This document shows, piece by piece, positions 777 through 12,215 of a stretch of DNA of 12,770 bases. The translations under genes and the position numbers were made by a program. Each line of letters starts with the position of its first letter. Position 1 is the first letter of the stretch. The DNA is from a virus: UHGV virus genome UHGV-0246522; one strand, given 5' to 3'. The notes beneath the pieces were generated by a model. The model did not search any database and was not told the DNA's origin. It was given only the letters and a program-made list of their open reading frames with translations.

Positions 777-851
777 GTCCTCTTAGTTAAATGGATATAA
801 CGAGCCCCTCCTAAGGGCTAATTGCAGGTTCGATTCCTGCAGGGGACACCA
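777..851 (+). tRNA. argW: tRNA-Arg, anticodon CCU
   Basis: 75-nt sequence folded by hand: acceptor stem GTCCTCT pairs with AGGGGAC (one G-U), anticodon stem AGCCC/GGGCT, loop CTCCTAA with anticodon CCT, T-arm GGTTCGATTCC, discriminator A and CCA end. Confidence 0.95.
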
Positions 852-1012
852 TTTATCAGTTCGCTCCCATCCGTACCAGTCCGCAAAATCCCCTGAATAT
901 CAAGCTTTCCGTAGATTTACAGTTCGTAATGGTTCGCGTCAGATCGTTGACAGCCGCACTCCATGACGGGTAAAAAGTGGATAAAATAATTTTACCCACC
1001 GGATTTTTACCC

Positions 1013-2170
1013 ATGCTCACCGTTAAGCAGATTGAAGCAGCAAAGCCGAAAGAAAAACCATACCGCCTTCTCGATGGTAATGGCCTGTACCTTTATGTCC
1101 CTGTATCCGGGAAAAAGGTATGGCAGCTTCGCTACAAGATTGACGGTAAGGAGAAAATCCTGACCGTCGGAAAATATCCGCTTATGACTTTGCAGGAGGC
1201 AAGGGATAAAGCATGGACCGCGAGGAAAGACATCTCGGTTGGTATCGATCCGGTAAAAGCGAAAAAGACTTCGTCTAACAACAATTCCTTTAGCGCCATT
1301 TACAAGGAATGGTACGAGCACAAGAAGCAAGTCTGGTCAGTAGGCTATGCAAATGAACTTGCAAAAATGTTTGACGACGACATTTTACCTATCATTGGCG
1401 GCCTTGAAATTCAGGATATTGAGCCGATGCAACTGCTGGAAGTAATCCGCAGATTTGAAGATCGCGGTGCAATGGAGCGAGCCAACAAAGCCCGCAGAAG
1501 ATGCGGCGAGGTTTTCCGTTACGCTATTGTCACTGGTAGGGCTAAATATAACCCGGCACCTGACCTTGCTGACGCCATGAAGGGATACCGCAAGAAGAAC
1601 TTCCCGTTTCTTCCAGCAGACCAGATCCCTGCATTCAACAAAGCACTGGCAACATTTTCAGGAAGTATCGTATCGCTCATTGCGACCAAAGTTTTACGCT
1701 ACACAGCCCTAAGAACGAAAGAGCTTCGTTCCATGCTATGGAAGAACGTCGATTTTGAAAACAGGATTATCACCATCGACGCCAGTGTGATGAAGGGACG
1801 CAAAATTCATGTGGTCCCGATGTCGGACCAGGTGGTTGAACTTCTCACTACGCTAAGCTCCATCACTAAACCAGTATCAGAGTTTGTTTTTGCCGGGCGC
1901 AACGATAAGAAAAAGCCAATTTGCGAGAACGCGGTGCTACTTGTGATCAAACAAATCGGCTATGAAGGTCTGGAAAGCGGTCACGGATTCAGGCATGAAT
2001 TCAGCACGATTATGAACGAGCACGAATGGCCTGCTGATGCTATTGAAGTGCAACTGGCACATGCCAACGGCGGATCTGTGCGTGGGATTTACAACCATGC
2101 TCAGTATCTCGATAAGCGCAGAGAAATGATGCAGTGGTGGGCGGACTGGATTGATGAGAGGGTGGCATAG
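1013..2170 (+). CDS. intS: Tyrosine site-specific integrase (IntS-like, argW-specific)
   Basis: 385-aa product from ATG 1013 (MLTVKQIEAAKPKEKPYRLLDGNG...), which I recognise as the CPS-53 IntS-type integrase. Position next to the tRNA and the C-terminal R..HGFRH..Y-type catalytic region support this. The track's upstream GTG at 977 would add 12 aa. Confidence 0.9.
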   Translation: MLTVKQIEAAKPKEKPYRLLDGNGLYLYVPVSGKKVWQLRYKIDGKEKILTVGKYPLMTLQEARDKAWTARKDISVGIDPVKAKKTSSNNNSFSAIYKEWYEHKKQVWSVGYANELAKMFDDDILPIIGGLEIQDIEPMQLLEVIRRFEDRGAMERANKARRRCGEVFRYAIVTGRAKYNPAPDLADAMKGYRKKNFPFLPADQIPAFNKALATFSGSIVSLIATKVLRYTALRTKELRSMLWKNVDFENRIITIDASVMKGRKIHVVPMSDQVVELLTTLSSITKPVSEFVFAGRNDKKKPICENAVLLVIKQIGYEGLESGHGFRHEFSTIMNEHEWPADAIEVQLAHANGGSVRGIYNHAQYLDKRREMMQWWADWIDERVA

Positions 2171-2304: not shown

Positions 2305-4395
2305 CTACATATTCACGCATGATATATGCTCAATAATCACTGTCATCCGCCCGCTTGCAGCGGTGGTTCCAGCGATTTTTTTTACAACTAAATTGTTTTC
2401 AGCAACTGTGACCACGATAGATCCAACGTTTGTTTGTGTTTTTACTCCAGCGACTGATTCTATATAATATGGCAATGATAACCCGAAGAACCAGTATCCT
2501 TCTGTGAATAGCTTTGCTGCATGCTCATCCCTGTTTGAGTTATACATTACAGATATTTTTACTGCCGTTTTTCCATTTGTTGTCTTTATTGGTATTAAAA
2601 GTGTTGTAGATTCATTTTCAGCTACGTCTGCAGTTACTGCATAGATGCGTTGAGATGTATCGGAATTTACGTTAGTTAGCGTATCAAACCCTCTGCAATT
2701 ACTTACTTGACGAAATAAAACATCAAGAAAAGTTGTAACCCCTGGCAATGGGTCAAGATAATACAATGGTGCGATATTTCCATCGCCAAGATTGAGGTTT
2801 TGCACCCGTACTATAGCCTTCACATACGCAGAGGAACCTCTGCTTATTTGAATTACAGCAGTTGGCACCGTTCCTGCCATTCCTGACGACTGAATGTTTC
2901 TGAAGATAACCTCTTTGAAGAGATATACATTAAAATTTGTGTTTCCTGTATTGCTATACAGAAATCCAACATTCTCTATTATGGCATTACATTTTATATT
3001 TTCAGCAATGTAACCATCATATGTATTCGGCGAGTTATTATAAAATGATACCAGACGAGAGATAATATCTGACGGATCTTCGCAGTTGACGTCAATATTT
3101 CGCAAAGAAATACCTCGAAATGTCGGTGCTCCACTGACAAGACCACCTGAAACGATTGACTGTGGGGCTGCTCCGTCAGCATAGAAGCAACTAAGTCCGT
3201 CTAGAGAACCTCCTGCCTGCAAGTCTACTGCTGACTGCCCAGCAGCAACAGCAAAGGCCTGTGTGCGCCGCTCTACAATATTGCTCACCCGAGAGTTCAT
3301 TATCTGTGATTTGACTGATCTCTTCTGGCAGTCTTCAAAATACGAATCACTAATATCAAATACTGCTGATAAATAGTTAGGGGATGATGCATATATCCCA
3401 TCCGCATCCTGATATGGTCCAACTCGGAATACTGAAATATTCCTAACATAGCAATATTCAAAGTTTTGAACCATAAACCCGCGACCAACATTAGAACCAC
3501 CTGAGCTTGAAATATCATAAGCTGAGGAATCTGACAGCCTAATCTCTTTCCATCTAAACAATGAGCCTGCCGTAATATATGCAGCAGTTGATAATCCTGT
3601 GTCAATTGCTTCCCTAGCGTTTCTTCCAGAATAGCCTGAAATAGATATTTTTGCGTTGTTATCGGATGAAAGCGCATAGAGTAGCTTTGCAGCATTGTTC
3701 TTGCCGTCAATGGCAATATCCTCTATGGAAAGAACGGATGAGCACGTTATTTTTAAAACAAATGGACTTACTGCTCCAGTATAGATAATAGTTCCATTTC
3801 TTATTGTTGTTTTTTTGTTGAAAACAACACTAATCATCTCGCTTGTTTTAATTGTCATTCCAGACAGGTCGATAACATACCCATCATATCTATTTAGCAA
3901 ATAGATTAATTTTTCTCCTTCATCTGTCCCATCACCAGTTATTCCTGCCGATGATGGCGTAACATAATATATAGCACTTTGAACTGTTCCACCCTGCTGA
4001 AGGGGGATCATATCCGCACCTTTTCCTTTTCCTGTGGATGTAATTTCCTTCCTTAACTGATCAGGGTCGTATTTCAGCACATTAGGGAAATAAAACTGCT
4101 GCGCACCATATGCATCATAAATAGCCATAGAGTGGCCTTGCACAGTTACGAACTTGGCAATCTGTCCGTTATATACAGGATAACCAGCGGCGTTAATGAT
4201 GATTGGCTGCGAAACAGGAACGTGAGAACCATCCTCATTCTCCACATAAACCTGAATCTGGTTTTCAGGATTTACCGGGTCAGTGTCAATTTTTCCTATA
4301 TAAATTTTGCCATTGGCTACGGCTTTAAAAGAACGAGCCATAGTGAAGAGTTGCGAAGGCATCGATACGATCACATTGGCTGTAATGTCTGTCAT
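2305..4395 (-). CDS. P22-like tailspike protein: conserved N-terminal head-binding domain, divergent receptor-binding domain
   Basis: N-terminus [58 protein letters not shown]...[13 protein letters not shown]...NVLKYDPDQ matches the head-binding domain of P22 gp9, Sf6 and HK620 tailspikes as I recall them. The remaining ~580 aa are Gly/Ser/Asn-rich, consistent with a beta-helix. GGAG lies 9 nt upstream of the ATG. Confidence 0.85.
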
Positions 4396-4451: not shown

Positions 4452-4478
4452 ATAAAAAAACCCAGCCGAAGCTGGGTC
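4452..4478 (-). terminator. Rho-independent terminator between ant and the tailspike gene
   Basis: On the minus strand: stem CCCAGC, loop UUCG, stem GCUGGG, then a run of seven U (plus-strand A-run 4454-4460). Confidence 0.6.
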
Positions 4479-4495: not shown

Positions 4496-5398
4496 TCAGT
4501 AGTTATGTACTGAAGGAGGTAATTCTTTATTCTTAAGTCTCATCCATGCGGAAAGATTCGTTGGTCCGTCTGGCTCATTAATATCAACATCTCGTGTGTG
4601 GTTTATTAAAACGTCTCTCGCCATTCCGATAACATACGAGAACTCATGACCGTAGTCGTAGCATCTGCCGGAATAGTTCGATTGAATTTGTTTTAGCGCC
4701 GGATACAGTTCGCGGAATAATGCCTGTGAGCGGTTGGCATAATCCCATAACCATACAAGGCTGTTTGCTTCTTTTGCAGAAAGCTCGTTGGTTTTCTTCT
4801 CTTGTTTGCCGATGAACTCGCCTTCAAGCACTACCCTGTGGATGTACTCTACTGCTTGCGGTATCTGAGATGAATCAAGCTCTTCAATACTTTCCACGTT
4901 GAAACGCTGATGAATCATTGCATAAGCTTCTGGGTACATTAGATGCTTTTTGCTGACTAGCATATTTACAGCATCACGAAGCGGAGTCCTGTCATCAACA
5001 GATGTTTTCTTACGTGCATTTTCTGCCTTTCCCTTCGTCCAGTAGTCATGCAGCACAGTAAAGCATTCTTCCTGGTACTGAATCAGTTTATCGCGGATGT
5101 CAGCACGAACTTTCTCAGGGTTGATGCTGAACAGCCATCCATTTAACTTCTTCAAAGGAAGGCAGAGTAGCTTACGAAGCTTACCATCAGCGGCAACCAT
5201 GTTCATATGAACATGGTTGAATTTGCTAATCTGCTTCATGAGTTTTGTTTGCTGCGTTGACCAGCTCATTCCAAGGTTTTCAACGATTGGCTTCATCGCA
5301 ACATATGCAACTCCGGCAGTCATGGCGGTGATAATCTGCTGACCATTGAAAGGTACGTAAGAGGTGTTCACTGCTTCTAAAATTGCTATACTATTCAT
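4496..5398 (-). CDS. ant: Antirepressor Ant (P22 immI-type)
   Basis: 300-aa product from the ATG at 5398 with GGAG 9 nt upstream; lies directly downstream of arc and upstream of the tailspike gene, as in P22 immI. The track ORF starts 22 codons further upstream with no support. Confidence 0.85.
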
Positions 5399-5399
5399 G

Positions 5400-5468
5400 T
5401 TGGTTTTTCTCCACGAATTTACTGACAACAGAAGCCCTGACTGTTCCCGCAGTTGGGGCTTCAACTTT
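5400..5468 (+). ncRNA. sar: sar-like small antisense RNA covering the ant ribosome-binding site and the arc-ant intercistronic region
   Basis: Plus-strand promoter inside the ant 5' end (-35 TGTTCA 5365-5370, 16-bp spacer, -10 TATACT 5387-5392). The predicted ~69-nt transcript is antisense to the ant SD and start and ends after a hairpin (GAAGCCC 5431-5437 pairing with GGGCTTC 5456-5462). This matches what is known of P22 sar. Confidence 0.4.
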
Positions 5469-5628
5469 ACGCGCCAATACGCCCTTCCTTCTTAAAGCTG
5501 TCCATTACTCTCTGATAAATCTCAGAGTTAACAGACCGACCATTCTCTTCCGCCACCTTGCGTACCAAATCCAATACTTCTTTAGGCCACCGCAAATTGA
5601 ACTGCGGCATTTTGCTCATTCCTTTCAT
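5467..5628 (-). CDS. arc: Arc repressor (ribbon-helix-helix)
   Basis: 53-aa product [53 protein letters not shown], nearly identical to P22 Arc as I recall it. The track ORF start at 5691 falls inside the arc operator and is rejected. Confidence 0.9.
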
Positions 5629-5718
5629 GTTCACCTCACAATATAGGTCCACGGTGGACCTATTGAGAATATAGTAGAGTGCTTCTATCATGTCAATACA
5701 CTAACTTGGAGTGATGGC
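5629..5718. promoter_or_regulatory. immI control region: mnt operator, arc operator, divergent Pant (minus) and Pmnt (plus) promoters
   Basis: Perfect 21-bp palindrome ATAGGTCCACGGTGGACCTAT at 5643-5663 (P22 mnt operator type) and ATAGTAGAGTGCTTCTATCAT at 5671-5691 (reverse complement of the P22 arc operator as I recall it), lying between divergent arc and mnt. Confidence 0.75.
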
Positions 5719-5973
5719 ATGGCTAGAGATGATCCGCACTTTAACTTCCGCATGCCTTTGGAAGTAAGAGAAAAATTAAAATACAGAGCAGAGTCAAATG
5801 GTAGATCAATGAACTCAGAATTGTTGCAAATCGTCCAAGATGCTCTATCGAGACCATCTCCTGTAAAAGGTTATCGCAATGAAGCTGAACGATTAGCCGA
5901 GATGCAGGCTGAACAGTTCAAGTCTGTGGTATTTGAGACACTTAAAAACATGTATGGCAAGGATGCAAAATGA
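5719..5973 (+). CDS. mnt: Mnt repressor (maintenance of lysogeny, Arc/MetJ family)
   Basis: 84-aa product MARDDPHFNFRMPLEVREKLKYRAESNGRSMNSELLQIVQDAL..., clearly homologous to P22 Mnt; divergent from arc-ant. Confidence 0.9.
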   Translation: MARDDPHFNFRMPLEVREKLKYRAESNGRSMNSELLQIVQDALSRPSPVKGYRNEAERLAEMQAEQFKSVVFETLKNMYGKDAK

Positions 5974-6551
5974 TCGATTACAACCCAGCAAAAAAAGAAA
6001 TCATCGCAGCTAAAAAGTGCCTAGAGCAGATGAAATCATCTACAAACCATGATGATTTTGAAATGCACTGGCGAGAATGTCTTGGGCATATAGAAAAGTC
6101 TTTCAGTAAGTTGCTCTGTGCAACAAAGCCGGTTAGTGGAAAATTTAGCAGCCACTTCAACCAAAAGTTCATGCTTAGAAAAACAGACAAAACACTTGCT
6201 TACCTTCACCAAGCAAGAAATGCTGATCATCATTCCACTATGGAAATCTCAAAACTTGAACCTCCTTATACTACTCTTGGGGCATTTCCGGGAGCAAGAA
6301 GCCATTATATTAAAGAGTTAATCATTGATTCAACAGGGAAAATAGCAAAATACGAAGGCGACCCTATGATAGTTGAGTTTCATCCAGCAACAACTATGCC
6401 TATAACCGTAAGAAACCAAGGCAAAGATTATCCACCTCCAACAGAACATCTTGGCGAAAAGCTTGTTGATATACATCCATCTGTTCTTGCCTATCTCGGT
6501 ATACAATTTTATGAAAAATGGATAGATGAGTCGTGTGCAACGTTTAGATAG
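5970..6551 (+). CDS. Hypothetical protein, translationally coupled to mnt (candidate accessory gene)
   Basis: 193-aa ORF whose ATG overlaps the mnt stop in an ATGA arrangement (5970-5973), with an AAGGA SD 8 nt upstream inside mnt. No family recognised by eye. Confidence 0.6.
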   Translation: MIDYNPAKKEIIAAKKCLEQMKSSTNHDDFEMHWRECLGHIEKSFSKLLCATKPVSGKFSSHFNQKFMLRKTDKTLAYLHQARNADHHSTMEISKLEPPYTTLGAFPGARSHYIKELIIDSTGKIAKYEGDPMIVEFHPATTMPITVRNQGKDYPPPTEHLGEKLVDIHPSVLAYLGIQFYEKWIDESCATFR

Positions 6552-6768: not shown

Positions 6769-7263
6769 GTGTCTGATTCTATGAGTTACGCTGTGCTAGT
6801 TGCCGCAACTCTATTTATGGGGATAGGGTTGCAGATTGCGTGGTTCTTTTTTTCTAGTTTTATTAAACGCAAAAGAATTGAATCAAGGATATCTGAGATT
6901 TCTATTGCTATAGGGAAAAATGCTGAAAATCCAGAGAATGAGACCTGCGCACTGAATTACCTTAAAGAAAAGTTTTCCCCTGAAAAATTTGAAAATAGAA
7001 TTACTGATGCTCTTGGATTGGTAATATCAGTAATTCATATGCCACTAAGTTTGCTGATAACAGTGTGGTACTTCGCCATGATCGCCGGAAGAATATTTGG
7101 TTTCATGAATATAGAGCCTGTAGTTCTTTGGGTTCCAATGATACTGCAACTGTTGTTAAGCGTTGCTATCTTTATTTTTTCTGTTTTTATAAAAATTGTC
7201 TTTGGAAGATACCCCGGAGAAGCTAAGGGATTTAATAAAGAATTCATAAAAACTATAAAATAA
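6769..7263 (+). CDS. Small inner-membrane protein with three predicted TM helices, in the position P22 uses for sieA (putative superinfection exclusion protein)
   Basis: GTG at 6769 is 5 nt after AAGAGG; an alternative ATG lies at 6781. Three hydrophobic segments ([82 protein letters not shown]). Located between mnt and the gp16-like gene. The 6697 start in the track has no RBS. Confidence 0.55.
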
Positions 7264-7285: not shown

Positions 7286-9127
7286 CTACTGCCGGGTCGC
7301 TTCGTTAGCTAAGAGCGGGCGCACGGCAGTAGCAGCCTGATTTAGCGCTCTTTCATAAGCTGGCGTTCCAGCTTTAGTGTTTGCCAGACGTAAGAGCGCA
7401 TTCCTTGCTGCTTTGGACTCATACAAACGCATCATTGCACCAAAACCAGCCTCAATCCCCATTGATACTCCAAGAGTCGCAGTTGCGCCAATCGTCCTTA
7501 TCCTGTTGGCTTGTGATTGTCCCGTCTGAGTTACTACATTTGCGGTGTCTGACCTTGTTGTTTGCTGTAGAACTTCATGAAGAGCATCGAGCTCTTTCAT
7601 GTGCTTTCCAGAAAAAATAGTGTTGTAAATTTCACCGCCTGACTGAGATTTAAGCTTATTAACTTCAGTGATGAACTTGGCTGGAGAGTCACCGGCCTTT
7701 TCCGCTATTTTGCTGACGTAAGCTGCACGCATAGCATCTTTCCCTTTATCATCCAATGCGCTCCAGATTCGTTTCACGTCAGATGGTTTTCTGCTTAATA
7801 CAACGGTATTTATAAGTTCAGGACTGGCTTCACTGCTTGCCTTGTTGAGCTTGTTGGCAATGTTTTTATTAAGCACCTTATTATAAACGTTTGCATAATC
7901 GGAATTTGCTTTAAGGTATTTTGCTGCGTCTGATGCACCGAGGTTTTTAGCAACTGCGTTACGAAGGTCTTTTGACATTGCATTCTCTACCATATTGGTA
8001 GCTGCTTTTGCCTGGTTGGGGAAGACCATAGCATCTCCCTGAACATTAGATCTAAATGCAGTTCTGTGCTGACGCAAGAGATCAAACGTAACATCCAAAT
8101 CAGTTGCAGGGTTTGCTAATTCTTCGCGTAGGTTACGCAAGGATGTAAGCAGGCTTTGATTGGCAGACGTCCCAAGCCGTTCCTGTCTTGCGATCGCTGT
8201 ATTCAGAGCATTCATAGTGTTTGTGGTATCAACTGCGGCATTCCCCATTTTATTGGTGACGTCATTGATAACAGCGCCAGCGGCATCCTTCCGTCCCCTT
8301 AACGTGGTGGTCAGAGATTTCACCACATCATCCGGGTTGTACTCACCAAAACGGTCAAAATAATTACTTACCAACTTACTACGCGTTGCATATTGCTCCG
8401 CTCGCTTTGAGCCTGTCCCGAGCAAAGCCCCCTCGGCATCCTGAGTAAGGCCGCGAGTGAAAGCATTTTTCGGCGGGATAACATCAGATGTCATTGGTGT
8501 CACGCCCATCGATTCTGATGTGGCAATTTTCTTCGCCACTTCTGGCGCAATATCACCTTTTATAGCCGTTATTCCACGCCCTATTCCCTTTGCTGCTGCG
8601 GAAAGAACCCCCTGAGCGGCAAGGTTAACTCCGGCATTTTTAGCTGCATTTTGTGCGAAATCGCCTTTCTGATTTGCGGCCTCTGCCAGTGATCCAATAG
8701 CCATGCTTCCTGCCGTTCCAACTCCTGGAACTAAATACCCACCAATTGTTTCACCGGCTTGTGCGTATGGGTCTGTCGGTCTGTCTACTGGACGATAAAC
8801 ATCATCCAAAACCTTGGGTCCACCAAGCCCCTGACTGATTGCATTAATCAGACTTGCGCCGCCCTGCAATACGTCAAATGGTATGTTTACCAGACCACGA
8901 CCAGCCTGCTCTGCAATTTGCCCTGCACTTTGACCACCTGTGAGCCAATCGCCAGCTTGTTGCATCAATGATGGTTCTTCACGTGCTGGTTCATTATTGG
9001 CCTGATTAACTGTTTGTTGCTGAACAGCCTGACCAGCAAAATACTCATCAATGGCGGTGCCAATATCTTCCGTGCTCGTACCATCAGGGAAGGTAAATGT
9101 CTTACCGTTTGCAGTTACTTTCATCAT
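7286..9127 (-). CDS. Ejection (DNA transfer) protein, P22 gp16-like
   Basis: 613-aa product starting [33 protein letters not shown], Ala/Gly/Asn-rich, in the gp16 position after the gp20-like gene and before the sieA-like slot; its start overlaps the upstream stop (ATGA at 9124-9127). Confidence 0.8.
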
Positions 9128-10077
9128 TCCACCGTAAATTGAATGCCTGATTTTGAGGTATATGATCCAACCTGATTCCGTGGTTCTCCTGAAGGTGTCG
9201 AATCTTGTGCTGGCGCTGCGTCAGTATTCATTGACATATACCGCTTAACGGCACTCCCCAATGATTCACCTTTTTTAACATCCAACCCCAATATCTGACC
9301 GCCATTACGCGATTGTCCAGGGTTGCCATTCGCGCTCATCCACTCGGCTTTAAACTCATTAAACTGCGCGTTTCGTCGCTCAAGGTTTGCCATTGCATCA
9401 AGCCATCTTGCTACCGTCTCAGGGTTATCCATGTCAGTTGGAGCACCCTGTCGAACGATCTCAACGTCTTTATCCGTTGCGGGGCCGGGAGGTAGGAATT
9501 TAAGAACCTGACTGTTAACAAGGGCATTTTGGCGGATGCGCAAATCACGCAATGTTGTATCGCTTCCGGTAAGTTTTGCGAACATGTTCTGTGCGTTACC
9601 GAACAAACCTGTCGTTGGTTTTTCTGCTCTGAACTGTTGAGCAAGCGCACTCATAGAATTGGCTGAGTTTGATGATGCTGTAGCATTGTTTACAGCCGTC
9701 TCGATGCCTTTTTCCATGTTTACTGACAGCTTAGGTGCTTCGCTAATCAACTGCTGAGCCTTTTCCTGTGCTTGCTGCATCTTAAACCCGAACTCTTGCT
9801 GATCCAGAGCCAAGCGTTGTGCTGCGATATTGTGCCCAGTCATTGCTGACTGATAGGAAAGGTTTTGCCCTCTCGCCTGAAGTGCTTCTCCAGCCTGATT
9901 GCTGCGGATTGTCTCTGCCAGTTTGCCTCGGTCAATTTCACGACCAGCCATCTTGTCCTGAACAGCAAACGCCTTTTCTGGTCCAAGCGCACCGAGAGAC
10001 ATAGTAGTCAGCATGTGTGATAGCTGCTCTGGATTCTGGATACCTGTCTGAATCATCCAGTCAGCATTCGCCCCCAC
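9124..10077 (-). CDS. C-terminal portion of an ejection protein (P22 gp20-like); reading frame interrupted upstream
   Basis: 317-aa ORF (GTG at 10077) ending in ATGA overlap with the gp16-like start. Upstream of about 10135 this frame becomes Cys/Trp-rich and non-protein-like, while the adjacent frame becomes protein-like, indicating a frameshift. Confidence 0.6.
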
Positions 10078-10082
10078 GCGAT

Positions 10083-11253
<1,171 letters not shown>

Positions 11254-11375: not shown

Positions 11376-11657
11376 GTGAGCGATAAACAAGAAGTTTCCT
11401 TAGCACATATCAATGATGTGCTGGAGTCCAAAAATTATATTGAAACTAATGCTGATGGGGTTGTAACCATCGGAACGGATAACAATGGCTACGAAGTTTT
11501 TAACTTCGTTTTTCTCAATAGCACCCCTGTCATCGGCCATATGAATGGCGAAATCGCAGTGGCAGGAATGCAGCGCACTAAGGTTGCGTCCGTGACTTTA
11601 AGTAAACAGAAGGCCTTCGATTTCTATCAGTCCTTGAAAAGCATGTTCGAGGAATAA
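11376..11657 (+). CDS. Hypothetical 93-aa soluble protein, first gene of the cassette in the rexA-rexB slot
   Basis: GTG start with AGGAG 7 nt upstream; no hydrophobic segment; the DNA looks AT-rich compared with the flanking cI; no resemblance to RexA. Confidence 0.6.
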   Translation: MSDKQEVSLAHINDVLESKNYIETNADGVVTIGTDNNGYEVFNFVFLNSTPVIGHMNGEIAVAGMQRTKVASVTLSKQKAFDFYQSLKSMFEE

Positions 11658-11663
11658 AAGCTG

Positions 11664-12215
11664 ATGAATGCAGCTCAATCATCTTTGGATGAGGGAAAGC
11701 TAGTAATTGCTTACTCTGATAAGAATGGCTCTACAGTAGGGCTGGAATTTTCTTCTGTAGCATCAAGCCAAGCAACGCTCTTGATGAAAGCTTGTTCTGT
11801 TGCTGCTTCAGATAAAGAAAAACGGATTGTCACATCGGTTGTGATGGATGATACTGAGATCATTCAAACAACAAGTGATGATGGAGGCGACGACATGGAT
11901 AAGCGATTAGCAGTTCTTGAAGCTGAAGTTGCGCACATCAAGAGCAGCATGACAGGAATTAAAGAGGATACCCGGAAAATATCTTCTGATTCTACTGACG
12001 CCAAAAGAGACACCGCTGTACTTTTACAGAAGAGCCTGGATTTTGATGCTTCATTATCTAAGAAACCATCGGTTGACTACTTTGAAGCTAAATTTTCCGC
12101 TTTGGAAACCAAGATAGCAGATGTAAAAGTATGGATGCTCGGGGTTCTCCTGGCCTCGCTTGCTATGCCAACTATATTTTTCCTAATAAACTTGTACCTT
12201 AAGAAAGGTCAGTAA
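11664..12215 (+). CDS. Hypothetical 183-aa protein with acidic/coiled-coil-like middle region and a single C-terminal transmembrane anchor, second gene of the rex-slot cassette
   Basis: ATG 6 nt after the upstream stop. C-terminus VKVWMLGVLLASLAMPTIFFLINLYLKKGQ is a typical tail anchor; the preceding region LAVLEAEVAHIKSSMTGIKEDTRKI has a heptad-like pattern. No resemblance to RexB. Confidence 0.6.
   Translation: MNAAQSSLDEGKLVIAYSDKNGSTVGLEFSSVASSQATLLMKACSVAASDKEKRIVTSVVMDDTEIIQTTSDDGGDDMDKRLAVLEAEVAHIKSSMTGIKEDTRKISSDSTDAKRDTAVLLQKSLDFDASLSKKPSVDYFEAKFSALETKIADVKVWMLGVLLASLAMPTIFFLINLYLKKGQ

Follow-up and report, generated by a model that had tools for sequence, protein, structure and literature searches.

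A P22-type tailspike with an uncharacterised receptor-binding domain in a defective prophage at Escherichia coli argW

Layout and decay of the argW prophage

The window analysed here, by which the whole stretch of 12,770 nucleotides is meant, is a segment of the Escherichia coli chromosome. It opens with the 3' part of yfdC, followed by the tRNA-Arg(CCU) gene argW (777..851, plus strand; ARAGORN), which is the integration site and marks the attL side of a prophage, and by a gene for an IntS-type tyrosine integrase (977..2170, plus strand; Pfam Arm-DNA-bind_3, Phage_int_M, and Phage_integrase). The true start of intS is likely 1013, giving a protein of 385 aa, as called on the identical contig L014, a 16-kb metagenome contig from ENA that carries the same remnant and encodes exactly the same tailspike protein. 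Convergent with intS lies an intact tailspike gene, a homologue of gene 9 (2305..4395, minus strand, read from 4395 to 2305), which comprises 696 codons and a stop and begins with an ATG at 4395 that is preceded by a GGAG ribosome-binding site 8 nt upstream. The first-pass annotation of this DNA had placed a 696-aa open reading frame (ORF) at these coordinates, which are right, the coding strand being the minus strand. A hairpin resembling an intrinsic terminator and followed by a T run (4459..4478, minus strand) separates the tailspike gene from the antirepressor gene ant (4496..5398, minus strand; 300 aa, P22_AR_N and P22_AR_C, gene call on L014) and from arc (5467..5610, minus strand; 47 aa), for which a Pant-like promoter is found at 5696..5668 on the minus strand. 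The mnt repressor gene (5719..5973, plus strand; Pfam Arc and Repressor_Mnt) is read in the opposite direction, and the promoter scan placed a Pmnt-like promoter at 5663..5691 on the plus strand.

Between mnt and gene 16 lies a low-GC (34-40%) moron block with two ORFs on the plus strand, one of which (5970-6551) encodes a 193-aa unknown protein assigned to phrog_23516, with no Pfam or PADLOC match, and the other (6769-7263) a SieA-like superinfection-exclusion protein. There follow, all on the minus strand, an intact 613-aa homologue of the ejection protein gp16 (7286..9127; PF26808 on L014, 97% nucleotide identity to the ENA contig L003), a gp20 homologue without its ~134 N-terminal codons (9124..10077; Inj_translocase positions 145-217 at residues 2-74, alignment with L003), and a 118-aa ORF in which cro' is fused to 'gene 7 (10083..10439; Pfam Cro positions 1-25 and P22_gp7 positions 115-200). 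Beyond these is a gene for a cI-type repressor of the LexA family (10540..11253, plus strand; HTH_3 and Peptidase_S24), and from 10363 to its end, which is the start of N, the window is 98.5% identical to phage HK544, making the immunity region one of HK544 type. Two unknown ORFs on the plus strand, 11376-11657 (phrog_12039) and 11664-12215 (phrog_12602), lie between cI and N in the place of rexA/rexB, arranged as in HK544; neither has a PADLOC match, the second encodes a C-terminal membrane-like segment, and both are possible uncharacterised exclusion genes.

The prophage is defective because of two internal deletions, gene losses being judged here within the window, up to its right end at the start of N. 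The larger is recorded by the fusion ORF, which joins Cro residues 1-26 to gp7 residues ~132-188 at a junction between 10343 and 10363; it removed cII through the replication, nin, Q, lysis, terminase, portal, scaffold, and coat genes, together with gp4, gp10, gp26, gp14, and the 5' half of gene 7. The other, ~0.5 kb long and located at 10138-10171, took gp7 from about residue 188 onward and gp20 up to about residue 134, as seen in the alignment with L003, and the remaining gene 20 frame restarts at a GTG. The cro'::'gp7 fusion and the gp7/gp20 deletion, both of which recur on the independent contig L014, bear out the earlier description of this DNA as a cryptic prophage that has lost its head genes. 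The large deletion also puts PR/OR directly upstream of 'gene 7-gene 20'-gene 16, and derepression of cI could transcribe the surviving ejection genes and, via read-through, perhaps immI and the tailspike gene.

The arrangement yfdC-argW-intS-tailspike recurs in HCP6S3_I2 and EC2641. In HCP6S3_I2 a near-complete relative of the prophage runs from dsdC|torI through N-cI-cro, Q-lysis-terminase, and coat to gp7-gp20-gp16(pseudogene)-mnt/arc/ant-tailspike-intS|argW. This order matches that of the window, where the tailspike gene closes the late region downstream of mnt, arc, and ant, and it implies that a tailspike gene beside int at the attL edge is the normal layout of the window's phage group. 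The source phage would have had a layout of the KplE1/HK620/Sf6 type, with int and xis at opposite ends of the prophage. The gp16-like gene of the HCP6S3_I2 prophage (L001 25492-26616), annotated as a lytic transglycosylase domain protein, is a pseudogene without both ends. Defective prophages of the KplE1/CPS-53 type share with the remnant the argW site, IntS, the persistence of genes near int when the interior has been deleted, and, as seen in the complete relative, a TorI-type excisionase at the far end. They differ in that, in the remnant described here, the tailspike is intact, immI and gp16 are still present along with an immunity region of HK544 type, and the gtr genes and tail-fibre fragments of K-12 are absent.

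Domains, fold, and relatives of the tailspike

The tailspike belongs to the P22-like class by its adaptor, its fold, and the position of its gene. The P22-type head-binding (particle-binding) domain (4057..4395, minus strand) covers codons 1-113, to which Pfam Head_binding (PF09008) aligns over its entire profile at E=2e-66, and matches to PDB sequences (Sf6 gp14 7sg7, P22 2xc1/8tvr, and 5gai) are confined to residues 1-118, in agreement with the earlier reading of the first ~115 residues as a P22-family head-binding domain. This conserved N-terminal domain would plug into a P22-type tail hub. Residues 8-107 also match WceF of Pantoea stewartii (6tgf, E=6e-8), a protein by which the bacterium modifies exopolysaccharide and whose fold resembles that of a tailspike.

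For residues ~116-696, no PHROG, no NCBIfam model, and no Pfam family above noise was found, and a PADLOC scan returned nothing informative on the receptor domain. When the full protein was compared by tblastn with 50,697 phage records, none of the 182 matches extended past residue 243, and the receptor domain alone matched these records only within at most its first 83 residues, which form the neck. A family profile searched against PDB sequences gave no receptor-domain match, its sole match being the TSP1/Gp66-type adaptor of other members, and a scan of GTDB species-representative genomes turned up no relative. Together with the head-binding match, an outcome far beyond chance, these searches uphold the earlier statement that the remainder of the protein is not the P22, Sf6, HK620, or endosialidase receptor domain (no Pfam, PHROG, NCBIfam, or PDB sequence match), and no high identity of the C-terminal part to a characterised tailspike emerged from them; as far as sequence comparison goes, no characterised tailspike shares this domain. 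As for individual candidates, the receptor-domain families of P22 (GH90 endorhamnosidase), Sf6, and HK620 were rejected, as PDB phmmer and profile alignments cover only residues 1-118 or adaptors, and so was an endosialidase of the CUS-3/K1F type, the CUS-3 match covering only residues 1-190, with no Pfam match and a β-helix in the model. The GC content is 37-43% in the receptor domain compared with 47-49% in its flanks.

A search among 5.8 billion sequences returned 19 clusters of receptor-domain relatives, and an exhaustive HMM search of 1.84 billion representatives returned 27 at E≤1e-30, ~24 of which span most or all of the domain; the family is small, with about 25 clusters among these representatives. 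The adaptors found N-terminal to its members are of the P22 head-binding, TSP1/Gp66, T7 tail-fibre N-terminus, endosialidase N-extension, and Calx-β types, and the hosts that have names are E. coli, Enterobacter hormaechei, and E. ludwigii. Homologues from Enterobacter prophages and metagenomic phages (P0002-P0019, L011, L012; UniProt A0A516LXN9) belong to the same family, being 30-63% identical over the whole β-helix and C-terminal domain and having the same invariant residues, but they differ in their adaptors, which are of the last four types, and in morphotype. The latter is illustrated by L011, a 48.6-kb IMG/VR contig of a siphovirus with a tape-measure gene, whose 714-aa spike has a receptor domain 60% identical to that of the window tailspike. 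The window protein contains an ITGDGTDEG motif, to be compared with the N-terminal cap motif GDGxxDD of the PF12708 superfamily (Pectate_lyase_3 / Pect-lyase_RHGA_epim), and has no significant match to the PF12708 profile; the distant family member P0017 matches this profile at 7e-7.

In an AlphaFold2 monomer model built from the family alignment (pLDDT 85.8), a short helical cap is accompanied by a right-handed parallel β-helix of ~13 rungs, spanning model residues 59-450, and model residues 469-575 fold into a C-terminal β-sandwich. The predicted β-helix, which would form the receptor-binding and putatively catalytic body, corresponds to 2701..3876 (minus strand, codons ~174-565). The β-sandwich corresponds to 2326..2646 (minus strand, codons ~584-690), as indicated by AlphaFold2 strands and by residues invariant in 19 homologues; conservation is high in this domain, whose probable role is in trimerisation or stability, presumably by locking the trimer. 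In a Foldseek search of the PDB, the top ranks were taken by phage tailspikes and depolymerases (Acinetobacter phage spikes, Kp9, phi92 colanidase, Sf6, and HK620) at 9-13% identity, and the best match in BFVD was a viral protein without a name at 29% identity. The first-pass annotation, which had proposed structure prediction and a fold search, expected a β-helix from what is established for P22-family tailspikes, and a β-helix with a C-terminal β-sandwich and tailspikes as structural neighbours is what both approaches gave. The fold is canonical, and the receptor-domain family is uncharacterised.

Compared with P22 gp9, Sf6 gp14, and HK620 gp9, the window protein has a head-binding domain nearly identical to that of Sf6 gp14 over residues 1-118, the same plan of β-helix and C-terminal domain, and a gene located after mnt-arc-ant beside int. 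It differs in having no detectable sequence similarity to them past residue ~120, where structural alignments are at ~9-12% identity, and in its distinct conserved motifs (PYQDxDG and CQKRSxKSQ), and it does not have the specificity of these phages' endorhamnosidase or endo-N-acetylglucosaminidase domains. Among β-helix polysaccharide lyases, epimerases, and hydrolases, coliphage K5A lyase (2x3h), AlgE4 (2pyg), GH87 (7c7d), and RbmB (9ozd) align at 11-12% identity only, and they have neither the P22 adaptor nor the C-terminal domain of the window protein.

Cassette exchange, candidate receptor, and putative active-site groove

The full tailspike gene is present in 2 of 5426 complete E. coli genomes (99.1% identity), and a homologous head-binding segment in 1102 of the same 5426. 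Between the window and the HCP6S3_I2 copy, 17 codons differ (14 synonymously and 3 non-synonymously), all of them within codons 11-122, and codons 123-696 are identical in nucleotide sequence. Across window positions 2500-4000 there are no nucleotide differences from L001 and L002 and three from L003; over ~1.5-1.7 kb, not one nucleotide of the receptor-domain DNA differs from two other copies, compared with differences of ~2-5% between copies in intS and the head-binding region. Ant, the immunity region, and the deletions are not the same in the backbones of the window, HCP6S3_I2, EC2641/L009, and L003/L010. Together with the GC-poor receptor-domain DNA, this pattern marks a cassette that has spread recently, entering unlike prophage backbones by recombination at the boundary of adaptor and receptor domain. 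The horizontal exchange of receptor domains to which the first-pass annotation had pointed is thus reflected here both in the variety of adaptors and in the contrast between 0 and 2-5% nucleotide differences. We consider it probable that the gene is the tailspike of a P22-like temperate phage at E. coli argW that is now defective, and that its β-helix/C-terminal unit is a rare mobile cassette for a rare O-antigen, a unit also found behind other adaptor types. No demonstrably functional phage with the window receptor domain was seen. The modular build of tailspikes, the swapping of their receptor domains, and the decay of argW prophages are familiar, and cassette swapping between phages is conceptually ordinary. 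What the present gene adds is an uncharacterised receptor-domain family, paired in a way that can be tested with an E. coli O-antigen cluster that is rare and has no name, and its four copies show neatly how a cassette is exchanged in nature precisely where adaptor and receptor domain meet.

The range of strains open to a phage is set by its tailspike receptor domains, which also find use as serotyping reagents, as specificity modules for engineered pyocins and phages, and as depolymerases. Between galF and gnd, HCP6S3_I2 has an O-antigen cluster (L004 9390-16472) with the order wzx, wecB/mnaA, GT4, GT, wzy-like, GT4. No NCBIfam serogroup model matches its wzx or wzy, its Wzy has three homologue clusters among 5.8 billion sequences, with homologues labelled just 'hypothetical protein', and the locus may represent an undescribed O-genotype. 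A cluster of this type occurs in 2 of the 5426 complete genomes, the other carrier being 2017.20.01CC, in which the argW site is empty. Locus tags and accession series place members of the Wzy cluster (38 in all) and of the tailspike cluster (40) in the same assemblies, with the tailspike/Wzy pairs ARC96_11255/ARC96_13750, HHO9861864/HHO9863936, and MEX3231036/MEX3230204, and the rare O-type is found in four of the five assessable tailspike carriers, a count that the window's own host stands outside. The carrier with a different O-type, EC2641, has an O112ab cluster (L006 14958-23333) together with a tailspike gene split by an IS3-family element; its flanking proteins have the same WP_ accessions as the HCP6S3_I2/ARC96 lineage, and L006 compared with L004 looks like an O-antigen switch. 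Many identical WP_ accessions are common to HCP6S3_I2, ARC96, and EC2641, so the co-occurrences of the O-cluster are not independent, and the association may be clonal, that is, due to shared ancestry.

On the strength of this co-occurrence, the rare O-antigen is the candidate receptor of the tailspike, and the most likely substrate would be the O-antigen of the rare unnamed E. coli O-type specified by the wzx, wecB/mnaA, GT4, GT, wzy-like, GT4 cluster. Different glycan specificity had been raised as a possibility in the first-pass annotation, and the idea is strengthened by the fact that no characterised tailspike was found with this domain and that its carriers share a rare O-antigen cluster. 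The receptor domain could alternatively be directed at a capsule (K antigen), colanic acid, or another exopolysaccharide, the O-cluster co-occurrence then being a by-product of the clonal relationship among carriers. This is unlikely, given that the co-occurring cluster is very rare and that the single carrier in which the O-cluster has been replaced, EC2641, is the one with a disrupted tailspike. It is established, moreover, that O-antigen is the target of most P22-like tailspikes characterised from E. coli, Shigella, and Salmonella, and across phage genera the subtype of the receptor domain has been shown to follow the O-serogroup of E. coli (PMC10408124).

Within the β-helix, residues that are invariant in the family lie on successive rungs encoded by 3304..3483 (minus strand, codons 305-364), in the motifs VGRG, PYQDxDG, and CQKRSxKSQ. 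The invariant polar residues are R305, D330, D332, C356, K358, R359, K362, and Q364 in a 25-sequence alignment with identities down to 21%; every one of them is present in the window tailspike, which thus shows none of the inactivating substitutions that the first-pass annotation had contemplated. Charged invariant residues clustered on consecutive rungs of a β-helix are the usual signature of an active-site groove, and this set is a candidate catalytic or substrate groove, in which the cluster of basic residues hints at an anionic substrate. The right-handed parallel β-helix of an O-antigen-directed tailspike would bind, and most probably cleave, the surface polysaccharide, cleavage proceeding through the groove of D330/D332 and R305/K358/R359/K362 by hydrolysis or β-elimination. 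Fold scores give no separation of hydrolases from lyases, or of catalytic from binding-only proteins. That the domain is instead a non-catalytic adhesin module which only binds its receptor is improbable: β-helix adhesins such as PfbA do occur among the structural neighbours, and homology assigns no catalytic residues, but nearly all of the top neighbours are enzymes, and the invariant acidic and basic residues cluster on consecutive rungs even in homologues as distant as 21% identity.

Expression and retention of the tailspike gene

The tailspike gene has a strong terminator-like hairpin upstream and, in simple consensus scans, no upstream promoter-like site, and the late activator and promoter region is deleted in the remnant. 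Its expression would need read-through either from Pant, whose repressors Mnt and Arc are both intact, or from PR, to which the deletion has joined 'gene 7, and these scans indicate that the gene is probably silent in the remnant.

Among the window, L001, and L002 there are no substitutions in the receptor domain from which dN/dS could be calculated, so selection cannot be measured. The 0 differences in this domain, set against 2-5% in the flanks, mean that there has been no time for decay, and the tailspike gene is intact because the copy is young and because its place at the int/attL edge spared it from the internal deletions. Recency is therefore the better reading of its intactness, as against maintenance. 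The first-pass annotation had left both alternatives standing, and it is the simply recent one that accords with receptor-domain DNA identical among copies and with the position at the int/attL edge.

Maintenance would mean, for example, that a P22-like phage resident in the same cell obtains the tailspike in trans, or that the protein has been domesticated as a glycan-modifying enzyme like WceF, and we give it little credence. The ORF and its ribosome-binding site are intact, the head-binding domain would fit P22-type tails, and L009, a 12.8-kb IMG/VR contig, is an EC2641-type remnant with an intact copy; Pantoea WceF (6tgf), a bacterial tailspike-like protein with the same N-terminal domain, provides a precedent for domestication. 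The zero receptor-domain substitutions among copies, however, leave no signal of purifying selection to be read, the EC2641 copy is disrupted by its IS3-family element, and the upstream terminator, the lack of a promoter-like site, and the deletion of the late activator and promoter region all weigh against a gene in use. In addition, the phage-type N-terminus appears by inspection to be without an export signal, and the neighbouring ejection genes are already truncated.

With recency as the preferred reading, the realistic use of the remnant would be to donate, through recombination, a host-range cassette that has conserved head-binding-domain sequence at its flank. We put forward only tentatively the fuller proposal that the receptor domain may define a new carbohydrate-active enzyme family (about 25 clusters, with the signature PYQDxDG and CQKRSxKSQ) that cleaves, possibly by β-elimination, the undescribed E. 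coli O-antigen of the unnamed wzx-mnaA-GT-GT-wzy-GT cluster, and that defective argW prophages may act as a standing reservoir for incoming P22-like phages through recombination at the head-binding-domain boundary.

On the ENA contig NODE_1685 (L003 12226-13135), a near-identical tailspike gene is followed by only a 154-aa C-terminal fragment of the integrase, which directly abuts early-left genes, and homology to the window begins at 1737, inside intS. A location of attP inside int, to which this fragment might have pointed, was disfavoured, as the complete HCP6S3_I2 prophage shows normal int...xis(torI) ends; L003 may represent the phage form, but more probably reflects a deletion or a fault of assembly.
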